This document shows positions 2,023-33,047 of a stretch of 64,000 nt of DNA, in pieces. Position numbers and translations under genes: made by a program. The first letter of the stretch is position 1. Each line of letters opens with the position of its first letter. Source of the DNA: an uncultured archaeon (GTDB lineage: Archaea > Aenigmatarchaeota > Aenigmatarchaeia > CG10238-14 > SCSR01); contig CAYJQI010000001.1 of NCBI GenBank assembly GCA_964372485.1, forward strand, positions 523,714 to 587,713. The letters run 5' to 3'. The notes under the pieces are model-generated. The model was given only the letters and a program-made list of their open reading frames with translations. It did no database searches and was not told the DNA's origin.

Positions 2023-3810
2023 CTAATGAGCAGCTTCTTTTATCATTTTGAATCCAAGCAAATCAAGAATAGATGTTCTCCTTCTTCTTTCTTCAGGAAT
2101 AGGTTCGGGTTGAGGTTCATTGATAATTTCTGGTTTTTCAATCGGTACAACTTGTTTTACTTCTTCCTTCTTTTTAGTATCTTGTAGCTTATCCATCAAC
2201 TGATTCAATTTTTCAGGTTCCTTGTAATACATGTTAATGTAGCTTACAACTTCCATGTAGTCTTTTATATTCTTGGATAACAACCATTCTAAAACTTGCT
2301 GTCTCTTTACCAGTTCTTCTTTCGCATCTTCAAGAGTTCCACCCTTTGCCTCAGCCAATCTTTCTATTACTTGACTATCATTTACTTTTTCAAACGTATC
2401 GCCTGTAGGATTCCAAAGGAAAACGAGATTTGTTTTTACCTCATCAGATTTTGGATCGACCGAAATTATCTCGACAATTTCTTTTACACGTCGTGCAGAT
2501 TCTCCTTTTTCTCTTGCGTGGGTCATAATTGTGACTATATTCAAACTTTCTAGGAGAATCGGTGAAAGTTCGATTGGTGGAGATGTTAATCTTTTGACAA
2601 CAGCATCTACAGAATTCGCGTGGAATGTGCTTAATGAACTGTGACCAGATGCCATTCCCTGAAACATAACATAAGCTTCTTTACCACGTGTTTCACCGAC
2701 TATAACATAATCAGGATTCTGTCTGAAACTTTCTCTAAGCAAATCGAACATTGTAACTTCACCGTATTTAGCACCAGATGCCATAGGAATTCCAAATCCT
2801 GTTCTTGCCAATCCGGACACCCAATGTTCATGTGGAATTCTAATTTCCTTCGTATCTTCAATCGAAACTATCTTTTTCTCAGTTGGAATGAACATGCAAA
2901 CAGAATTCAAAAGTGTTGTTTTACCTGTTGCAGTACCTCCAACAAAAAGAACATTTGCACCATTTTCAAGCATATACCAAAAATAAGCCATGATTTCTGG
3001 GCTTGCGGTTTTTACATCAATCTGTTCAACAGGTGATAAAGGTTTTTCACCAAATTTACGAATAGTGAAAGTAGGGCCTCGTGTAGCAACATCACCGGCA
3101 ATTGTTGCGGAAATTCTAGAACCATCAGGTAAAGTTCCATCAAGCATAGGTTCTGCATAACTAACATACCTTCCACTCACTTCGGCAAGTTTTACAACAA
3201 ATTCTCTCAAAACTTCTTCATTTTCAAAACTCAACGATGTTCTGATAGATCCGTATTTACGATGAACGACAAAAATTGGTGTGTTAATTCCATCACAGCT
3301 TATATCCTCTATATTTGGATCTTGCATCAATACATCAATGTCATTAAATCCAACAAAATTTCTGTAGATATAGTACATGAATTTAACATATTGGTTAAGG
3401 CTTAGTCTCCATCCAAAATCTTCCAAGACTTTGCTGAACTGACTTTGTAAATATTCAACTGCCTTGGTTTTTTCTTTCAATGCCGATAGCTCAACTTCTA
3501 CTAGTTGAATTAATGCATCAGAAATTTTTGCAATAGAATCCTTTTCATCATCTGACAAGACAGGTTCTATTACATTATAAACAATCTCTTTTGTATCAGG
3601 ATCCCATTTGATGTTGACATAAGCGAAAGGATCTACAACAGGATATATAACATTTACTTTTGAAGGATCTGTAGCATCTGGCAATTCGATTATCTTCGTA
3701 ACCTTTTCCATCCTCATTCCTGGTAAAGGCTCTTCATTTGTGTGTTTTTCAGTAAGTTTTCTGTAAAACAGTCCTCTCAATTTCTTGATCTTATCGAGTA
3801 CCATCGCCAT
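2023..3810 (-). CDS. Type II/IV secretion-family ATPase (FlaI/TadA/VirB11-like pilus assembly ATPase)
   Basis: 595 aa. Walker A FVGGTATGKTTLLNS, Walker B region PDYVIVGETRGKEA and a His-box-like GHSSLSTFHA. Lys/Glu-rich C-terminal tail. Confidence 0.85.
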   Translation of the reverse strand: MAMVLDKIKKLRGLFYRKLTEKHTNEEPLPGMRMEKVTKIIELPDATDPSKVNVIYPVVDPFAYVNIKWDPDTKEIVYNVIEPVLSDDEKDSIAKISDALIQLVEVELSALKEKTKAVEYLQSQFSKVLEDFGWRLSLNQYVKFMYYIYRNFVGFNDIDVLMQDPNIEDISCDGINTPIFVVHRKYGSIRTSLSFENEEVLREFVVKLAEVSGRYVSYAEPMLDGTLPDGSRISATIAGDVATRGPTFTIRKFGEKPLSPVEQIDVKTASPEIMAYFWYMLENGANVLFVGGTATGKTTLLNSVCMFIPTEKKIVSIEDTKEIRIPHEHWVSGLARTGFGIPMASGAKYGEVTMFDLLRESFRQNPDYVIVGETRGKEAYVMFQGMASGHSSLSTFHANSVDAVVKRLTSPPIELSPILLESLNIVTIMTHAREKGESARRVKEIVEIISVDPKSDEVKTNLVFLWNPTGDTFEKVNDSQVIERLAEAKGGTLEDAKEELVKRQQVLEWLLSKNIKDYMEVVSYINMYYKEPEKLNQLMDKLQDTKKKEEVKQVVPIEKPEIINEPQPEPIPEERRRRTSILDLLGFKMIKEAAH

Positions 3811-4105
3811 ACCTTCCCATAGGACGGGAGAACCCCTTTTTTCTCACTGCTTTTCCAGGTTGCACAATGTGCCTGAACCTAGCACAGCTTGGACAATATC
3901 TCATGACTCTGCTCATCATGCTTACCATTCTTTTGTCCATCTGCTGGAGCACAAAAGGATCATTTATTCTCATGCCTCGTCTAACAGTGAATGTTTTGTA
4001 TCTAGGAACATCTCTGCCACAGCCGTCGCAAGTGACTTTTCTTTCATTTCCCCTTGATGTGCCATGCTGATATGATCTTTTATATGGTGCTTCACTGATT
4101 GGCAT
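3791..4105 (-). CDS. rps26e: Ribosomal protein S26e (eS26)
   Basis: 104-aa basic protein. RGNERKVTCDGCGRDVPRYK ... YCPSCARFRHIV matches the eS26 zinc-ribbon pattern as I recall it from eukaryotic RPS26. Its 3' end overlaps the annotated ATPase start by 20 nt. Confidence 0.7.
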   Translation of the reverse strand: MPISEAPYKRSYQHGTSRGNERKVTCDGCGRDVPRYKTFTVRRGMRINDPFVLQQMDKRMVSMMSRVMRYCPSCARFRHIVQPGKAVRKKGFSRPMGRYGDGTR

Positions 4106-10227: not shown

Positions 10228-13104
10228 ATGAAATGGGCGGCTTATTTCTCTACTACACTCATGCTGCTTTCTATCTTATCCACCCCAATATCTTTTGCAC
10301 AAACTACTCCGGACTTTGATGAGACAGGTGGTGTTGCGCCAGACAGTTTTTGGTATACTTTCGATACTCTTTGGGATGATACAAGAATAGCCTTTACATT
10401 TGATGCTGAAAGTAAAGCACAATTAACAGCCGAAGTTTCTCTAGAAAGATTAGCTGAGATGCAGGCAATGATGGACTCGTCTAATTATGATGCAGTTGCA
10501 CGTGCGGCAGCTGAAAGTCAAGATTATTTGCAAGCATTGCAATCTCGTATAAATTCCATAACGGATACGAATCCTGAAGTTATTGCACAGATTGAACAAG
10601 CTATCGTGTACAATAATGCGTTCGCTGATAGTTTGCACGAACAAATACAGCAAAAGGTTGAATCAGGTGAAATAACACAAGATGTTGCGACTGATATTTC
10701 TATTGATACTGTGCAGGAATTAACAGTTGACGCGGGATCAACTTTCACAGACCATGAAGAAGAACTAATATCTGAATATGCAGCAGAGCAAGGAATTCCT
10801 GTTATCGAAGCAGAAATAATTTATAAAAACGCTGAAGATACAGTCGGTTTGACAGATGTAAAACAAACTGAAGTTACTGAAGAATTGACGCAAGCTGTAG
10901 AAACTATAGAAACACTTGAAGATGAATATTATGCCTTACCAGAAGATTCAGAAGAAAGAGTGCCATTAGCCAATATGATAGAAGATGCCAAACTTGATTT
11001 GCAGGTAGCAGAAACTGCATTCAAAGCTGAGGATTATGATGAGTCATTCCAGCAATTAGTTGAAGCGCAGGATGTTATTTTCACAGCAGAAGGTTATCTA
11101 GATCAGAGTCTGCCTCCAGAAGAAATTCAGCAGGTTGAAACACATTGGGCCACTTTTGATGCAATTCAAAATGAAGTAGTCGAGGAAAATGAAAGATTCG
11201 CGACAGAATTTGCACAATACAAAGATGAACTTGCGCAGAAATATCCTGACAAGATAGAAGCTCTTGAAAAATTATTTGAACATGCTGATAAGGTTCGTGA
11301 GCTTGCAACAGCACTTTCTGACGACTATTCACAGGAATTTGAGAAATTAGTTGCAGAAGGAAGAAGCAATGTGGAAGCAACTGAAATTTTGACTGCACGA
11401 TTTGCAGACGAATATAGGAAAGCATATGGTGAAGAATTCGTTCCTCCAGGATTTGTTGTAAACGGTGAACATGAATATGATCCAACTGCTCCAGAGAAAT
11501 TTGGCGAGAAGAAGATAGAAGCTTCTGCAGGAGGAGGATTTGTTGTAGGAACTCAATACACCGATCCAGTATCAGGTTACAAGTATGAGTTTACTGAAAC
11601 AGGATGGAGATATACAACACCATCTGGACAGGCTTATGAAAAAACATATCCAGACGGTTATGTCCCACCAAAGGCGTACGAGAAAGGAAATGAAATGTAT
11701 AATTATAAGATTGACACCCCACAAGGAGTGGTGGAGTATGTTTATACAGCAACTGGTTACGAAGTAGTTCAGCCTGATGGTAAACGAGAAGCATTCGCAT
11801 ATTCTCCTGGACAGTACAAATTACCTGATGGAAGAGCGGTTGAGTACAAACCAACAGGATATGAAATAAAATCAGGCAATACTGTCCAAGCGAAATATGA
11901 TTACAATCCAGAATTCAACACTTACATCGCAACGGACGGATCAATATACAAACCTCCAGAAGGAGCATACTACCACAACAATGTTAATTATGATACTGCA
12001 CAGAAATCATATAACTATGCATATGGAACTGACACTTGGACATACGATCCAACAGCCGGGAGTTGGAAATCTTCTACAGGTGAAACTTACAAACCAGAAG
12101 CCCGGGTAGTTGCACCAGTTGGATATGAATCCCAGCAAAGTTATACTTCACAATCAGGAAATACATGGACTTATGATGCTTCAACTGGATGGACTTCATC
12201 AAAAGGAGAAGTTTACAATCCAACGAGCGGTCAGTTCAAATCTTCTACAGGTGCTACATCAACAGTTAATTATGATTACAGGCAGCCAGAGTATACGTTT
12301 AACGCACAGACAAGGGAGTATATATATGAAACTCATACTGAGACGGGAACAGGTGCATGGATATATGATCCTACTGCAGGATCATGGACGTCATCAACAG
12401 GACAGACTGTAACAGGAGGATATATACCACCTACAGATTACCCAACTCCAGCTTATCCTTCGCCATCAATTACTACTTATCAGACTCCAACATACATTAC
12501 GCCATTCTTTACTTACCCAACACCATACTATACCTATCCTTCACCATCATATCCATATCCTACACCTGGAACTTATTTGACGCCTTATAGTTATCCAACT
12601 CCTTCATCCTATACATATCCTAGTCCATACACGTATCCTACCCCTGGAGAGAGTTATTCTTATCCTACACCAACAACGTATGCGACGCCATCCTATTCAT
12701 ATCCTACTCCCGGAACATCATACGCTACCCCAGGCTATTCATACCCAACTCCTGGATATAGTTATCCAACGCCTTCATACCCAACCCCGTCATACAGTTA
12801 TCCTACTCCAGGATATGCCTACCCATCACCAAGTTCATATTCATACCCATCGCCTTCTTACGCCTATCCAACTCCTTCATATGCTACTCCTTATGATACA
12901 CCATACGGAACACCTTATGGTACACCAGATTCCTATTCTAGTCCATACGGTTCACCTTATGCATCACCATATGCTAGTCCATATTCAACTCCGACAGGCG
13001 GATTCGTTCTCGTCGACATTCCGAATTACATCAGGACAATTTTAGAAAATGCAGGTTTTACTTGCGTCCAAGATTCAGACGGATTGTGGAACTGCGAATA
13101 TTAA
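10228..13104 (+). CDS. Large secreted protein: signal peptide, acidic helical region, W-x-YD-x3-G-(x)-W-x-SS-x-G repeats, Tyr/Pro/Thr/Ser low-complexity tail
   Basis: 958 aa. N-terminus MKWAAYFSTTLMLLSILSTPISFAQ looks like a signal peptide. Three repeats: TWTYDPTAGSWKSSTG, TWTYDASTGWTSSKG, AWIYDPTAGSWTSSTG. The tail is annotated separately. Confidence 0.8.
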   Translation: MKWAAYFSTTLMLLSILSTPISFAQTTPDFDETGGVAPDSFWYTFDTLWDDTRIAFTFDAESKAQLTAEVSLERLAEMQAMMDSSNYDAVARAAAESQDYLQALQSRINSITDTNPEVIAQIEQAIVYNNAFADSLHEQIQQKVESGEITQDVATDISIDTVQELTVDAGSTFTDHEEELISEYAAEQGIPVIEAEIIYKNAEDTVGLTDVKQTEVTEELTQAVETIETLEDEYYALPEDSEERVPLANMIEDAKLDLQVAETAFKAEDYDESFQQLVEAQDVIFTAEGYLDQSLPPEEIQQVETHWATFDAIQNEVVEENERFATEFAQYKDELAQKYPDKIEALEKLFEHADKVRELATALSDDYSQEFEKLVAEGRSNVEATEILTARFADEYRKAYGEEFVPPGFVVNGEHEYDPTAPEKFGEKKIEASAGGGFVVGTQYTDPVSGYKYEFTETGWRYTTPSGQAYEKTYPDGYVPPKAYEKGNEMYNYKIDTPQGVVEYVYTATGYEVVQPDGKREAFAYSPGQYKLPDGRAVEYKPTGYEIKSGNTVQAKYDYNPEFNTYIATDGSIYKPPEGAYYHNNVNYDTAQKSYNYAYGTDTWTYDPTAGSWKSSTGETYKPEARVVAPVGYESQQSYTSQSGNTWTYDASTGWTSSKGEVYNPTSGQFKSSTGATSTVNYDYRQPEYTFNAQTREYIYETHTETGTGAWIYDPTAGSWTSSTGQTVTGGYIPPTDYPTPAYPSPSITTYQTPTYITPFFTYPTPYYTYPSPSYPYPTPGTYLTPYSYPTPSSYTYPSPYTYPTPGESYSYPTPTTYATPSYSYPTPGTSYATPGYSYPTPGYSYPTPSYPTPSYSYPTPGYAYPSPSSYSYPSPSYAYPTPSYATPYDTPYGTPYGTPDSYSSPYGSPYASPYASPYSTPTGGFVLVDIPNYIRTILENAGFTCVQDSDGLWNCEY
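12421..12996 (+). repeat. Coding low-complexity region: degenerate (S)YPTP(G/S)Y / YSYPTPG-type repeats (~190 aa)
   Basis: Translation is almost entirely Y, P, T, S, G, A, for example PSYSYPTPGTSYATPGYSYPTPGYSYPTPSYPTPSYSYPTPGYAYPSPSSYSYPSPSYAYPTPSY. Confidence 0.85.
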
Positions 13105-13136: not shown

Positions 13137-15554
13137 ATGTTATCCACCTGGTATGGTCGATTTTCTTTCTTAGCTTTAATCACTTTTTTGCTTCTTGTCA
13201 ATGTCGCAATTGGTCATGATGATCATGTTGTCGTTGATGTGACAGATGATGGGTTCTCACTCGAATCGGTAAAAATAAAAATCGGCGAGGAAGTTACATG
13301 GATCAACAAAGGAAATTCTCCACGTTGGCCAGCAAGTGATATACATCCAACACACACACTTTATCCAGGATCGGACATTACTAAATGTGGTAAAGAACAG
13401 AATTTGTTGGATTCCTGCGGTTCATTGAAATCGGGACAAGAGTTCACATTCACTTTCAGTCAAAAAGGAAAATGGGGAATTCATGATCATTTGAGTCCTG
13501 GACATACGATGTATATTGAAGTTGTAGATGATGAGGAAAAATCTTTCAATCTGTTTTCAATTTTAAGGAAATTACTCAGTTTCATTACAGGATTCTTTGC
13601 AAAAACTTCTGTCTATGTGCCTGAAATAAATGAATTCCGTTTGATGGGGTATGTTGATCAGAAAAATATCATAAAAGAAATCAGTGCAAGTGATCCTGCG
13701 AAAGCATGGGGGTATTTGAAATCTGCATATACTGTTGACGGACAAATTAAAGAAAATCCTCATGAATTATCACACATAGTCGGCAATGCACTTTATACCA
13801 AGAATGGATTGGATGGGATATCAGTTTGTGATCCTGCTTTTGCATTCGGTTGTTATCATGGTGTGGCTGAAGAGATGCTATCTGATGTAGGAGTGGACGG
13901 TATATCCGAAATCGAAGATTCATGCTACAAATTCTTTTCTAAAGATACCGCGCTTGCAGCAAGCTGTATTCATGGAATTGGTCATGGACTAGCAACATGG
14001 GAATCGTTGGATGTAGCAAAAGCCCTCAATGATTGTGATGTTCTTGCATCTAACAACAGAATTTATTGTTATGACGGAGTTTTCATGGAATATAGTTTTG
14101 GTGCAGTTGCAACTGATGACGAGTGGAAATTCTGTGGAAGTTTGGATGAAAAATATCAATCAATGTGCGCAAAATATCACGTCTACATTTATGGAAGAAA
14201 CAATGGATGGAATTTCTCAGAACTAGGAGAATCATGCGATAACGCACCTAATGAAATATTGCGAAGTAATTGTTTGTCTGGTCTAGGATTCTCTGTTGCA
14301 AATGCTGCACAAGGTAATCCCGATAAAATAAATGAAATTTGTTCAACAATTCAATCAGATGGAAAATACACGTGCATTACATTTGCCGCAGTGGAAACTA
14401 TTTTCCAAGCATATTCAAATTGGTACACTTCATTCGTTGTTTTGTGTAACAGCCTTCCGTCGGAATGGAAAGAAAACTGCATGCAACGAACAACTGAAAC
14501 GATAACTGCATACAATAGAAAGATTGAATATCCGGAAGAGATACAAAAAATAAAAGCGACTGAAAATTTAGATGAGCAGGCTCTACATTACAAAGAATTG
14601 ATAGAACGAGTTGGACCAGAGCAGGCACAAGAAGATCTTTACAGGTCCGGCATGCCATTCACAGGGCAAACTCATCTTTTGAATCATGTTGTTGGTGATT
14701 ATTTGTATGAAAAGTACGGTGCGACAGGGCTTGTGTATTGCAAAGATTACTTCTTGGCATCATGTTATCATGGTGTGATTTTGCATGCGATAGGCGATTA
14801 CGGAATTGATGGTATGGATGAAGTTATCAATGAATGTAAGAAGTTCGGAATAACTGTGACTGCACAATGTTCGCATGCACTTGGACATGGCTTCTTGACA
14901 TGGACGGGATATGAAAAACTTGATCAGGCTCCATATCTTTGCGATGACATTAGCAAGAAAGTGGATGGATTTCCTGTCTTCAATTGTTTGGATGGAGTTT
15001 TCATGGAAAATATTTGGGGAGTGCATGAAGGTAAACCTTCTGAGAAAAGATGGGTGAATGAAAGTGATCCTTTCTATCCTTGTAATGATTCGAGAATAAA
15101 CCCAAATCATCTGAGTGGATGCTGGGCAAATCAACCATCGTTAATGTACCAAATGTTTAAGGGAGATCTTGCAAAAGTTGGTGAATATTGTTTGAAAGTT
15201 GAGAATTCTTCATTGAAGACAGTTTGTTTCAATGCATTGGCGCGTCAAATACACCCATTAACAAAAGGAGATGTGAATTCTACATTTCAATTGTGTAATC
15301 TTTTGCCTTCAGAGTGGGTCAATTACTGTTTGACAACAATAGTATTGTCAGATTTTTCAGTGGGCGGAAGAGATCTGTCGTACAAAATTTGTGAGAAAAT
15401 AGATGATATAGAAAAAAGTAATTGTTATGCTAGTCTTTTCGGAGTAATTGGAACTTATGCAAAATCTTTTGAAGAATACAATAATTGGTGTCTGAAAATT
15501 TCAGATGTAAAATGGCAGAATACATGTATGAGTTTTAAAAGTAAATCACTTTAG
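13137..15554 (+). CDS. Secreted protein: cupredoxin-like N-domain plus two copies of a Cys/His-rich module (HExxH, CYHG, CxHGxGH, GVFME)
   Basis: 805 aa with a signal/TM segment FSFLALITFLLLVNVAIG. N-domain: EEVTWINKGNSPRWPASDIHPTH ... IHDHLSPGHTMYIEV. Module motifs occur twice: CYHGVAEE/CYHGVILH, CIHGIGHG/CSHALGHG, CYDGVFMEY/CLDGVFMEN. Starts 32 nt after the upstream gene. Confidence 0.8.
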   Translation: MLSTWYGRFSFLALITFLLLVNVAIGHDDHVVVDVTDDGFSLESVKIKIGEEVTWINKGNSPRWPASDIHPTHTLYPGSDITKCGKEQNLLDSCGSLKSGQEFTFTFSQKGKWGIHDHLSPGHTMYIEVVDDEEKSFNLFSILRKLLSFITGFFAKTSVYVPEINEFRLMGYVDQKNIIKEISASDPAKAWGYLKSAYTVDGQIKENPHELSHIVGNALYTKNGLDGISVCDPAFAFGCYHGVAEEMLSDVGVDGISEIEDSCYKFFSKDTALAASCIHGIGHGLATWESLDVAKALNDCDVLASNNRIYCYDGVFMEYSFGAVATDDEWKFCGSLDEKYQSMCAKYHVYIYGRNNGWNFSELGESCDNAPNEILRSNCLSGLGFSVANAAQGNPDKINEICSTIQSDGKYTCITFAAVETIFQAYSNWYTSFVVLCNSLPSEWKENCMQRTTETITAYNRKIEYPEEIQKIKATENLDEQALHYKELIERVGPEQAQEDLYRSGMPFTGQTHLLNHVVGDYLYEKYGATGLVYCKDYFLASCYHGVILHAIGDYGIDGMDEVINECKKFGITVTAQCSHALGHGFLTWTGYEKLDQAPYLCDDISKKVDGFPVFNCLDGVFMENIWGVHEGKPSEKRWVNESDPFYPCNDSRINPNHLSGCWANQPSLMYQMFKGDLAKVGEYCLKVENSSLKTVCFNALARQIHPLTKGDVNSTFQLCNLLPSEWVNYCLTTIVLSDFSVGGRDLSYKICEKIDDIEKSNCYASLFGVIGTYAKSFEEYNNWCLKISDVKWQNTCMSFKSKSL

Positions 15555-30522: not shown

Positions 30523-30861
30523 ATGCCAGTTACCGTTAAAGATGTTTCTGAAATGTTTGCCAAAGATGTTTTCACTAACAAAGGTTTCTATTGTGGCAAG
30601 ATAAGCGATATGGAATTTGATTTGTCAAGATACAAGGTCAAGTCAATTGTTGTTGAGGCTGCAAGAGGTTCATTATTGGGAAAGATTGTTGCAGGAAAGA
30701 AAGGAGTTGTAGTTCCTTATAACATGGTTCAATCAGTTGGTGATGTTGTAATAATCAAACACATAAGCGAATCAGCATTGCCTGACATGGATATTCCTGA
30801 GGAGCCAGCAATGGAACCAGAAATGCCAGCTGCATCACCTAGATTCTCAAGAATGCGCTAA
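30523..30861 (+). CDS. PRC-barrel domain protein
   Basis: 112 aa: VFTNKGFYCGKISDMEFDLSRYKVKSIVVE ... VVPYNMVQSVGDVVIIK is the archaeal PRC-barrel pattern. Acidic/Pro-rich tail. Confidence 0.7.
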   Translation: MPVTVKDVSEMFAKDVFTNKGFYCGKISDMEFDLSRYKVKSIVVEAARGSLLGKIVAGKKGVVVPYNMVQSVGDVVIIKHISESALPDMDIPEEPAMEPEMPAASPRFSRMR

Positions 30862-31644
30862 AACATTAGATTCTCTTACTGTTCTTTTGTAGAAACTATC
30901 ATCATAAGGTCTATCGCTTAAAGAAGCTGCTCTTTTCATAAGTTCATGTCCTAAGGTTGTTGCATTATGTTCTCGAGAATCAATTGCATCACCAAAACTC
31001 ACCACCATCAATCTACATACTTCAGGTATGGTGTAACCTTTTAAATAACCTACTTCTCCATCATTACATCCTATCCAGTTTGGTAAGCAGTTTATTTTTA
31101 TCCCAACTGGTTGACATCTAACACCTTCCCCACTCCATTTTTCATATTCTTTTGCATAAGTGAAGATTGATTCATCCCATTTGGTTACAGGTATTTCACT
31201 AGGTTTTATTATTCCTCCTTTCGCTTTCGTCCATATTTTTCTAGGCATATCCCCTTCTGGAAAATTCAAAGCAATTAAATTTCGATACCATGTTTCAAAT
31301 AATCTATCACGAAAATACGATGAGTTAAAATCTTCACCAAAAATAGAGGCCACTATATGTGTAAATTCTTTTCCTCCTCTCATGTGGCGTGAAGGAGTGT
31401 ATACAGATACAAGTCTTGTAGAAGATTTCTCTCTAACAGCTAGACCAACTGCAATAGGATCTGTGGCCCAAATATGTGCACCGACCATAATACCTGGTCC
31501 ATTTTGTAATGGAGTTCCATTAACTTGCAGCTGATATCCATAGTCATTGCTAAACACAGAACCAACGAACGGTATTAATGCTCTATAGGTTAATGGTCGA
31601 TGATCTACCAATCTTCGTAACAAATAATTCATTCTAGAATACAT
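30847..31644 (-). CDS. PlsC/LPLAT-like acyltransferase candidate
   Basis: H-x4-D (GAHIWATDP) and FPEG (LNFPEGDMPRK) lie 71 residues apart, the spacing of acyltransferase motifs I and III. The start at Met 31644 lies 2 nt after the upstream stop; the track start 31680 would overlap. Confidence 0.45.
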   Translation of the reverse strand: MYSRMNYLLRRLVDHRPLTYRALIPFVGSVFSNDYGYQLQVNGTPLQNGPGIMVGAHIWATDPIAVGLAVREKSSTRLVSVYTPSRHMRGGKEFTHIVASIFGEDFNSSYFRDRLFETWYRNLIALNFPEGDMPRKIWTKAKGGIIKPSEIPVTKWDESIFTYAKEYEKWSGEGVRCQPVGIKINCLPNWIGCNDGEVGYLKGYTIPEVCRLMVVSFGDAIDSREHNATTLGHELMKRAASLSDRPYDDSFYKRTVRESNVLAHS

Positions 31645-31646
31645 TG

Positions 31647-32813
31647 TCACTGGTTTCTGGACTTTAAAGTTTCTTCGCATGTTGTCTCAAACTCTTCTTC
31701 TGGAATCTTTCGACATTTATCTATTAATTCCTGTTCGTTACGCGACCAAACACTTACCTGAAAAGCCATTTCTTTGTAACAAATCTCCTTGTCTTGCACA
31801 TCTACTATGGAACAGAATTCTATCACCATTGATTCATTTCCACCATATCTTCCACTCAATCCACTAACAACACCCTGCACACAGCGTTTTCTCATTTCCA
31901 ATTCCTCGATCAAATAACAATCCTCCTTCATTACTGTAAAGTTTTGTGTATATCCAACCTGGTTCGATCCTACGATCATAAAGCAGCCATTACGATATAA
32001 CTCGGGTACTTGGTTGCACAAGTCTATTGTTTTCTCCCAGTCATAGCGCGTGATGATTGAGAAATATGAACTCTGGTAGGTGTAGCATAACTTCAGATAT
32101 CTCTCTTCAAGAATGTTACATGGATACATTGGATCGTCTGGATTTACAAACTTTCCTGGATGGTCTCTGCTTGTGGAACTGGAGGAACTTTCCATGAAAA
32201 CACCACTGTAACATCCTTCCCTATCTTTAATCGAGTTTAATCCATCGCAAAGTTTCAAAGAGTATGGCAAATCCCCATTGGTTATGAACATCATCGCATG
32301 CCCGATTCCATGAACACATTCATCATAAATTCTTTGATAGGAATGTTCCTGTGGAGTTTCGCAAACATCTCTAACTTCATTTAATATAACTGAATCATCT
32401 GAGTACAGCGGTATACCTTTCTTCATGAAATGGCTTTCAAGAGCACCATGATAACATCCTCCATGACATGCTTCGGTGCATTCGGCATACACATCCGGAA
32501 TATTTCCAACTTTTTCATATTCATTCCTGCTAAGATAATGTGTGACTTCATGGCAATGTGAAAAGATTTCTGTCAACTTCTCGTTCTTTTGGAATGTATC
32601 CAGTATTTCTCTTAATGAAAATCGTGCTGTGAAATCATCCGAGATTTTGCTGTAACAAGACGAGCTGTAATTTTGATTGTAGGTGCAGTCTGCCATTTTT
32701 GATAGGATGTAACTCTCGGCATTAACATCTTCTCTTTCTGGTAATATGAATACAAGTGCTACCAATCCGATCAGAATAAGTAAAATTTTGTAATTGCCGA
32801 CAGAATTTTTCAT
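31647..32813 (-). CDS. Secreted Cys/His-rich protein, single-module paralogue of 13137-15554
   Basis: From internal Met MKNSVGNYKILLILIGLVALVFIL (signal/anchor). Motifs: HEVTH (32538-32552), CHGGCYHGALE, CVHGIGHAMMF, GCYSGVFMES, LCNQVPELYRNGC. Confidence 0.7.
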   Translation of the reverse strand: MKNSVGNYKILLILIGLVALVFILPEREDVNAESYILSKMADCTYNQNYSSSCYSKISDDFTARFSLREILDTFQKNEKLTEIFSHCHEVTHYLSRNEYEKVGNIPDVYAECTEACHGGCYHGALESHFMKKGIPLYSDDSVILNEVRDVCETPQEHSYQRIYDECVHGIGHAMMFITNGDLPYSLKLCDGLNSIKDREGCYSGVFMESSSSSTSRDHPGKFVNPDDPMYPCNILEERYLKLCYTYQSSYFSIITRYDWEKTIDLCNQVPELYRNGCFMIVGSNQVGYTQNFTVMKEDCYLIEELEMRKRCVQGVVSGLSGRYGGNESMVIEFCSIVDVQDKEICYKEMAFQVSVWSRNEQELIDKCRKIPEEEFETTCEETLKSRNQ

Positions 32814-33047
32814 AAATATTATTATTAATCGTAAGTTTATTGTTGATACACAGAAAACCGTAGGTAAGAATAAGAAAAAATCCAAAAATTTTGGAAAAAA
32901 TAAAAAGAAGTTAGCCTTCATCGAATGAATCCAGCTCTTCTACTTCCACTTCTTCAAGTGGATCCCATATGTCTTCGTCCATTTTGTTTTTCGCCTCTTT
33001 TAATTTTTAAGTGAGTAAGGAAGGGTGGAAAAAAATTCCCTTCAAAT

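Follow-up and report, generated by a model that had tools for sequence, protein, structure and literature searches.

What is the role of a large Cys- and His-rich module that occurs three times in a short piece of an archaeal genome and belongs to no named family? We asked this question of positions 523,714 to 587,713 of contig CAYJQI010000001.1 (GenBank assembly GCA_964372485.1), from an uncultured member of the Aenigmatarchaeota. This stretch of 64,000 nucleotides, which we call the window, has a G+C content of 35% and encodes two proteins with the module. The first is an open reading frame (ORF) of 805 amino acids (aa) at 13137..15554 on the forward strand (+), in which an N-terminal hydrophobic segment is followed by a cupredoxin-like domain, a linker helix and two copies, modules A and B. 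The second, of 388 aa, lies at 31647..32813 on the reverse strand (-) and has a single copy, of the p2 type. Our answer is a tentative one that falls just short of probable: we infer that the module and the cupredoxin domain act as an extracytoplasmic pair that binds metal and possibly carries out redox chemistry.

We first establish what the module is. A preliminary description of the window had recognised it twice in the long ORF and once in the shorter protein, by a series of ordered motifs. All of these motifs were found, and an alignment of the three modules brings them into the same columns. Pairwise BLASTP comparisons gave E values from 3e-26 to 4e-13. Modules A (residues 161-490) and B (491-805) are 30% identical (E = 2.9e-26), module A and the 31647 protein are 25% identical (E = 4e-18), and module B matches the latter with E = 4e-13. 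These similarities are far beyond chance, and the three modules are paralogous. A search of all frames of the window with the hidden Markov model of the family revealed no further copy. Module A (residues ~161-466, 13617..14534, +) is made of N-terminal cap helices and seven hairpin repeats of ~34 aa. Module B (residues ~478-805, 14568..15551, +) follows the same repeat plan and has one extra C-terminal repeat. The AlphaFold2 (AF2) model of module A, computed from an alignment of 58 sequences, is all-alpha with ~20 helices (predicted local distance difference test, pLDDT, 92.6; predicted template modelling score, pTM, 0.87), as expected for the helical repeat suspected initially. The model of the full-length 805-aa protein has a pLDDT of 90.4 and a pTM of 0.76.

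The regular spacing of Cys and His had been described for a unit of ~300 aa. The spacing stands, and the unit is itself composite: profile-profile comparison and the AF2 helix pattern divide it into seven sub-repeats of ~34 aa with covarying Cys pairs. Comparisons between sub-repeats with hhalign gave probabilities of 92-97% among R3-R7 and weaker ones for repeats 1-2. In each sub-repeat, a loop connects a short helix A, which ends in a Cys, to a long helix B, whose second turn holds another Cys. Module A has 14 Cys, which make seven i/i+8-14 pairs: 231/239, 263/277, 300/311, 333/344, 367/379, 402/413 and 437/448. Six of the seven are essentially invariant in 292 aligned modules, the set to which the module frequencies below refer. 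For the pair 231/239, both Cys are present in 258 modules, neither in 31 and a single one in 3. The p2 subtype adds a pair, 208/235, and the p2 protein of the window accordingly carries an extra one, C87/C116. Among 587 unique modules, 276 have only 231/239, 91 have only 208/235 and 176 have both, i.e. these pairs are gained and lost as independent units. The pairing is also backed by the top coupling in a mean-field direct coupling analysis (DCA) of the 587 modules (effective number of sequences, Meff, 521). The conservation of Cys and His positions among homologues, on which the preliminary description had staked its proposal, is observed.

The module proteins are rich in Cys (4.4%, against 0.63% in 26 other ORFs of the window), and an N-terminal hydrophobic segment was found in 308 of 355 family proteins (87%), consistent with the earlier suggestion of an extracellular or anchored protein. 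The window carries such segments in both genes: residues 1-27 of the 805-aa protein form a signal peptide or N-terminal membrane anchor (FSFLALITFLLLVNVAIG; 13137..13217, +; AF2 helix 2-27), and the p2 protein has an N-terminal anchor at residues 10-24 (32742-32786, -). Many members of the family come from bacteria of the Candidate Phyla Radiation (CPR). VKOR is a disulfide-forming quinone reductase. Together with MdbA-like oxidoreductases, it was reported to be enriched in CPR genomes (preprint 10.1101/335083). Because of the covariation of the Cys pairs, the high Cys content, the hydrophobic N-termini and this enrichment, the pairs are most likely disulfide staples along one edge of the solenoid, their oxidised state being deduced from these features.

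The second conserved feature is a ladder of His, Glu and Met. H241, H279 and H283 are present in 100% of the modules, H209 and H213 in 99%, and the same holds for the neighbouring G242, G282 and G314 (100%) and for F316 and E318 (99%). M317 is conserved at 98%, and its sole replacement, in five cases, is His; such an exchange is typical of a metal ligand. E245 exceeds 90% in alignments A2 and A3, and D313 reaches 51%, the alternatives being Ser, Thr and Gly. The ladder set is kept, in the same alignment columns, by each of the three modules of the window. It comprises H209, H213, H241, E245, H279, H283, D313, M317 and E318 in module A (13761..14090, +), H513, H517, H545, L549, H580, H584, D619, M623 and E624 in module B (14673-15008, +), and H88, H92, H122, E126, H168, H172, S203, M207 and E208 in the p2 protein (32190-32552, -).

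The couplings tell how these residues are arranged. Helices B0 and B1 are coupled with an offset of 27-28 residues (208-235, 212-238, 216-243, 217-245), B1 and B2 with an offset of 37-39 (244-281, 248-285, 237-276), and B2 and B3 with an offset of 33-35 (286-319, 275-310). The invariant residues are therefore in register on parallel helices B0-B3. They fall into two rows, H213/H241/H279/D313 and R-or-N217/E245/H283/M317-E318, with H209 one turn below. Coevolution thereby places the ladder in what is predicted to be one contiguous patch over four parallel helices, near the disulfide edge. The AF2 model differs from this topology in one region. It draws residues 209-230 as one helix with a pLDDT of 93-98 (window positions 13761-13841 cover residues 209-235), which precludes the contacts 208-235, 212-238 and 219-230. 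The coevolving set, including the Cys pair 208/235, requires the chain to turn at the conserved G224 and to form a short helix at 226-231. For residues 209-235 we provisionally gave more weight to coevolution, because its topology is backed by about eleven independent top couplings and fits the repeat plan.

The third feature is the domain that precedes module A (residues 28-132, 13218..13532, +). Its resemblance to cupredoxins, proposed from the sequence, was confirmed both by profile and by structure. The family profile matched amicyanin over the whole domain (E = 1.1e-6), and Foldseek, with the full-length AF2 model, gave target-normalised template modelling (TM) scores of 0.68-0.78 with amicyanin, plastocyanin, the Nitrosopumilus cupredoxin 5fc9, and 4hcf/4hcg, a Cupredoxin_1 protein of B. 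anthracis with Cu or Zn bound. The reported lack of the type-1 Cys was confirmed as well: Asp117 occupies the position of the amicyanin ligand Cys92, and R63 that of the ligand His53. This is general in the family. Among 195 unique domains, the type-1 position holds Asp in 185 (95%), Asn in 9 (5%) and Cys in none. The family has the fold of the type-1 cupredoxins amicyanin and plastocyanin, with Asp substituted for the Cys. The other canonical ligand positions vary: 63 is His in 47% and Arg in 39%, 122 is His in 48% and Gly in 24%, and 125 is Gly in 69% and Met in 26%; the window domain has R63, G122, H123 and M125. Other residues hardly vary in the same 195 domains, with H70, H73, H116 and H118 conserved at 99-100%, and N57, WPAS64-67 and D92 at 97-100%. 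The family-invariant set reads N57, W64-P-A-S67, H70-P-T-H73, D92, H116-D117-H118 and P121. The domain carries, to judge from its sequence, a cluster of its own made of four His and two Asp. The window domain scores 13.5 bits against PF13473 (Cupredoxin_1), for which the cut-off is 27; at E <= 0.5 this profile matches 17 of 85 family members (best E value 4.2e-8), and Copper-bind (PF00127) matches 11 of the 85. A homologue search with the cupredoxin domain alone retrieved only 7 small proteins. A stand-alone Cys-less cupredoxin, in this case a lipoprotein, was seen at another locus (L089, 1757-2961), followed by a small membrane protein and, two genes downstream, a VKOR homologue, which fits the disulfide reading as well.

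Domain and module are joined by an amphipathic linker (residues 139-154, 13551..13598, +) that AF2 models as a helix. It is rich in Phe and Leu (FNLFSILRKLLSFITGFF) and recurs in CPR homologues, e.g. as GIWEKLRNFFSNFWHRIF. This linker could be a docking helix or could position the protein at the membrane surface.

How widespread is the module, and does it keep this company elsewhere? The distribution survey proposed in the preliminary description uncovered a large family, mainly in CPR bacteria and DPANN archaea. A profile search of 1.84 billion representatives at 50% identity retrieved 7577 proteins at E <= 1e-3, of which 2657 also reached E <= 1e-30. Two word-indexed searches gave 161 and 145 proteins, all of them unnamed, 'hypothetical' or 'plastocyanin'. 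The hosts are DPANN archaea and, among the CPR, Saccharimonadales and Nomura-, Levy-, Roizman-, Davies-, Gottesman-, Doudna-, Jorgensen- and Blackburnbacteria. The closest homologues, 54-59% identical, come from metagenome-assembled genomes (MAGs) of Candidatus Aenigmatarchaeota and from MAGs labelled 'uncultured archaeon'. Together with the genes that neighbour the modules in the window, they point to a DPANN-type archaeon as its source. Scanning one genome per GTDB species with a single peptide pattern identified at least 451 loci, a lower bound given the single pattern. Beyond DPANN and CPR, they include Dehalococcoidia/SAR202, Gemmatimonadales, Nitrospirales, Thermoplasmatota and an isolate, Methylocystis rosea SV97. 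The ORF of the latter and module B share 37% identity (E = 6e-81). This B-type homologue (L081, 3899-5170 of NZ_KB889963.1) ends in a tail of TPYxTPYPTPYE repeats, low-complexity sequence of the type found in the tail of the DUF5667 protein of the window. Its hydrophobic leader lies in an upstream ORF in another frame (3594-3917), and the gene may be frameshifted or mis-started. Arrays of cupredoxin-module genes like those of CPR were also seen in MAGs labelled 'uncultured Gammaproteobacteria' (L025-L028, L032, L035, L038, L043, L044, L046 and L047). Of these, L025-L028 share an identical five-gene array, and the taxonomic labels of these TPA (third party annotation) assemblies look doubtful. 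A search of 2.9 million viral contigs gave one locus, which rules out a phage family.

The module is found in several architectures. It may stand alone (~400 aa), follow a cupredoxin as a single copy (~450-510 aa) or follow it as two copies (~800-850 aa), as in the window. The largest proteins have up to 11 module matches. Occasional fusions involve a GH3 N-terminal domain with LRV/HEAT repeats, FG-GAP repeats, Laminin_G_3 or C-terminal cupredoxins. For example, in the metagenomic protein P0241 (3580 aa) a GH3 N-terminal glycosidase domain and LRV/HEAT repeats come after 11 module matches, and P0258 combines FG-GAP repeats with 5 module matches. When 80 GTDB loci were analysed, the module was fused to a cupredoxin in 47, and a separate cupredoxin gene adjoined it in 6 more. 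At least two module genes were present in 36 of these loci and at least three in 21, typically in head-to-tail arrays. Fusion to, or adjacency with, a cupredoxin is the sole robust functional association that we found, and the partnership is obligate-looking.

Does any described system combine these features? The preliminary description could assign the module to no named family, and neither could we. Scanned against Pfam and NCBIfam, the window proteins gave no match on the modules, and the 85 family members, scanned singly against Pfam, gave recurrent matches to Cupredoxin_1 and Copper-bind only. Single-sequence and profile searches of the PDB retrieved cupredoxins and nothing on the module. 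With the model of module A, Foldseek found no PDB entry better than E = 0.01 (TM ~0.2). Its neighbours there are generic solenoids (designed PPR, ARM, TPR and HEAT), as they are in BFVD. We found nothing in the literature that describes the module. The nearest known proteins in general plan are HcpA/B/C of Helicobacter, which are Sel1-like: secreted solenoids of alpha/alpha hairpins, with repeats of ~34-36 residues and one Cys pair per repeat at the helix junction. Secretion, repeat length and one Cys pair per repeat are common to both, and the local C-D-x5-G-C-x-x-x-G pattern is similar. However, Sel1 (PF08238) was matched neither by the window proteins at E <= 1 nor by the 85 members at E <= 0.5, the only TPR match among the window proteins and these members is a single chance-level one to TPR_GEMI5, and Hcp structures are not among the top Foldseek matches of the module. 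To our knowledge, Hcp proteins lack the invariant His/Glu/Met ladder and a cupredoxin partner. The module family is thus absent from the libraries and literature that we searched. Its components, an alpha/alpha repeat probably stapled by disulfides and a Cys-less cupredoxin, are of known kinds; the ladder and its pairing with a cupredoxin are new.

The closest parallel in general logic is with EfeO and FtrB of Fe2+ uptake systems, which, like the window protein, are extracytoplasmic and have a cupredoxin fold without the type-1 Cys. EfeO fuses this fold to an all-helical M75/imelysin domain with conserved His/Glu metal ligands. In FtrB of Brucella, Cu2+ is bound through Asp118 and Fe2+ is oxidised, with Asp and His proposed as Cu2+ ligands (PMC11966278). 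Some homologues of the window protein also reach PF13473 (Cupredoxin_1), and the Cupredoxin_1 protein 4hcf/4hcg is a neighbour in fold. The module has no match to M75 (PF09375), the domain with the HxxE motif in EfeO, and no Foldseek similarity to imelysin or EfeO. The window cupredoxin is nearer amicyanin in sequence, and neither 8VUK nor EfeO was matched at E <= 10. The residue sets also differ, D118/H121/E84/E86/E93 in FtrB against the invariant H70/H73/D92/H116/D117/H118 of the window family.

The invariant His/Glu/Met ladder and the persistent partnership with a His-rich, Cys-less cupredoxin are the reasons for which we favour metal binding. The module would be an exported alpha-solenoid of seven helix-hairpin repeats of ~34 residues. 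In its groove, the grid formed by H209, by H213/H241/H279/D313 and by R-or-N217/E245/H283/M317-E318 may bind two or more transition-metal ions, presumably copper or iron, and the more variable groove residues of repeats 4-7 might tune specificity. The module would work with the Cys-less cupredoxin domain, whether fused or encoded adjacently, and the latter would contribute the invariant cluster H70, H73, D92, H116, D117 and H118. By analogy with EfeO and FtrB, the pair may serve extracytoplasmic metal capture, and possibly oxidation, rather than blue-copper electron transfer.

Several observations weigh against this proposal. Of the 80 loci, 27 have no cupredoxin within 4 kb. The single AF2 helix 209-230 puts H209 and H213 at ~15 Å from the other ladder residues. 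The ladder itself covers four helices (~28 Å), so that it cannot be one mononuclear site. No permease of the EfeU/Ftr1 type, the partner known as EfeU or FtrC in the EfeO and FtrB systems, and no other metal-transport gene adjoins any examined member; this covers the called genes of L001-L008, the Pfam-scanned flanks of six non-CPR loci and the neighbours of both window genes. The giant proteins, with up to 11 modules and GH3, FG-GAP or LamG fusions, resemble surface scaffolds or glycan-active proteins. Finally, many hosts live anaerobically, which makes chemistry of Cu with O2 less obvious.

The main rival, which we consider unlikely though worth serious attention, is that the module is a non-catalytic surface scaffold or adhesin. 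The module would then be a disulfide-stabilised solenoid, TPR- or Sel1-like, whose groove binds a peptide or glycan of the host or of the envelope, and the His/Glu ladder would serve to contact the ligand or to maintain the structure, with no functional metal centre. Its structural neighbours are indeed only generic binding solenoids, and the tandem arrays of 3-6 paralogues in CPR loci, the multiplication of modules within single proteins and the fusions to LamG, FG-GAP and GH3 domains also speak for this rival. The enrichment of the family in the episymbiotic CPR and DPANN lineages fits as well, and the subfamily-specific, covarying groove residues 313/381/420 suggest ligand specificity. What this rival leaves unexplained is the ladder: one Glu, one Met and five His are 98-100% invariant in three module subtypes and in thousands of clusters that have diverged from each other, which is rare in binding solenoids. 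The Met-to-His exchange at 317 and the obligate-looking His-rich cupredoxin partner likewise point to metal chemistry.

A metal-dependent hydrolase or lyase is distinctly less credible, and here the preliminary description did not hold. It had given weight to a 'true HExxH' motif and considered a metallohydrolase. On such a reading, the solenoid groove would accommodate a polymer substrate, and Zn would be held either by HExxH or by E318 and the HGxGH helix. The helical HxxxH motifs H209-H213 and H279-H283, with the invariant E318 on an adjacent helix, would suit such a site; a GH3 glycosidase domain is found in one of the giant members, and position 210 is Glu or Asp in 77% of the modules. 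This position is nevertheless the weak point. The Glu of HExxH is present in 54% of the modules, with Asp in 23%, Leu in 10% and Gln in 6%. Overall, 20% have Leu, Gln, Thr, Pro or Ala, including module B of the window, where the first motif reads HLLNH. The fold is all-alpha and has no zincin-like beta-sheet. Pfam scans of the 85 members gave no recurrent peptidase match, the single one being to M35 at E = 0.049, and Foldseek found no similarity to hydrolases or lyases.

A bolder proposal is a long shot. The cupredoxin (HxxH and HDH) and the ladder might together form an interdomain multinuclear copper or iron centre, which would define a new class of extracellular oxidase, e.g. a ferroxidase or a polymer-oxidising enzyme, characteristic of CPR and DPANN and mis-annotated as 'plastocyanin'. 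The four invariant His of the cupredoxin would be arranged like half of the trinuclear site of multicopper oxidases. The HCHxxxH motif of these enzymes resembles the C-terminal HDHLxPH loop of the family, in which Asp replaces the Cys, and there is a weak profile match of the domain to ascorbate oxidase 494-522. In contrast to multicopper oxidases, the family has one cupredoxin domain, HDH in place of HCH, one HxxH and one HxH, and no partner domain for a trinuclear cluster.

Lastly, a classical blue-copper carrier of the plastocyanin type, with the helical part as a docking domain, is suggested by the amicyanin/plastocyanin fold, by the PF13473 and PF00127 matches of some members, by Joint Genome Institute (JGI) annotations that call them 'plastocyanin' and by the reading of CPR cupredoxins, namely single cupredoxin proteins of Patescibacteriota, as electron carriers to NirK (PMC12931201), but it is hardly tenable and was ruled out by the sequences, since the 195 domains have no type-1 Cys and the residues at the sites of the two His ligands and of the Met ligand vary, Arg63 replacing the first His in the window.

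The genomic context adds little to the choice among these readings. The window neighbours are housekeeping genes (archease, PolX, FtsZ, M1 aminopeptidase). Immediately upstream of the 805-aa ORF, at 33 nt, lies a gene for a secreted protein of 958 aa (10228..13104, +). DUF5667 (E = 3.8e-13) is its N-terminal domain; it also has a long helical region of acidic character and a tail of ~250 aa of low complexity, rich in Tyr, Pro, Thr and Ser (YSYPTPGYSYPTP...). The same gene pair is present in Ca. Aenigmatarchaeota CP066684 and in two other archaeal MAGs, and not in more distant relatives. Since only close archaeal relatives keep the two genes together, a functional link between the DUF5667 protein and the module is uncertain. 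Our literature search gave no matches for DUF5667. CPR loci contain arrays of paralogues and showed no informative partner genes. In Dehalococcoidia, Gemmatimonadales, Nitrospirales and Thermoplasmatota, the module genes lie next to unrelated genes of metabolism or chemotaxis. As for the p2 gene, the ORF that ends at 31647 (-) encodes 424 aa if the ATG at 32921 is used and 388 aa if it starts at the ATG at 32813; the database gene call (P0121) takes the 388-aa start. Its 3' end is overlapped by 34 nt by the start of the longest reading of another ORF (30847-31680, -; 277 aa, no Pfam match). If this start codon is real, the overlap suggests that the two genes are co-transcribed.

CPR bacteria and DPANN archaea have tiny genomes that largely encode unannotated surface proteins. 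In these organisms the module makes up one of the big uncharacterised families, with at least 7577 clusters at 50% identity and often several genes per locus. Its unusually sharp signature of conserved residues points to a chemical role and not just a scaffold. The 'plastocyanin' labels given to the fused cupredoxin are misleading, and metabolic reconstructions in which such proteins figure as electron carriers should check the Cys ligand. The isolate Methylocystis rosea SV97 and the single-copy homologues in Nitrospirales, Gemmatimonadales and Dehalococcoidia MAGs may open the family to genetics and biochemistry. If the ladder does bind copper or iron, it would be a new extracellular metal-handling device common to ultra-small prokaryotes of both domains.

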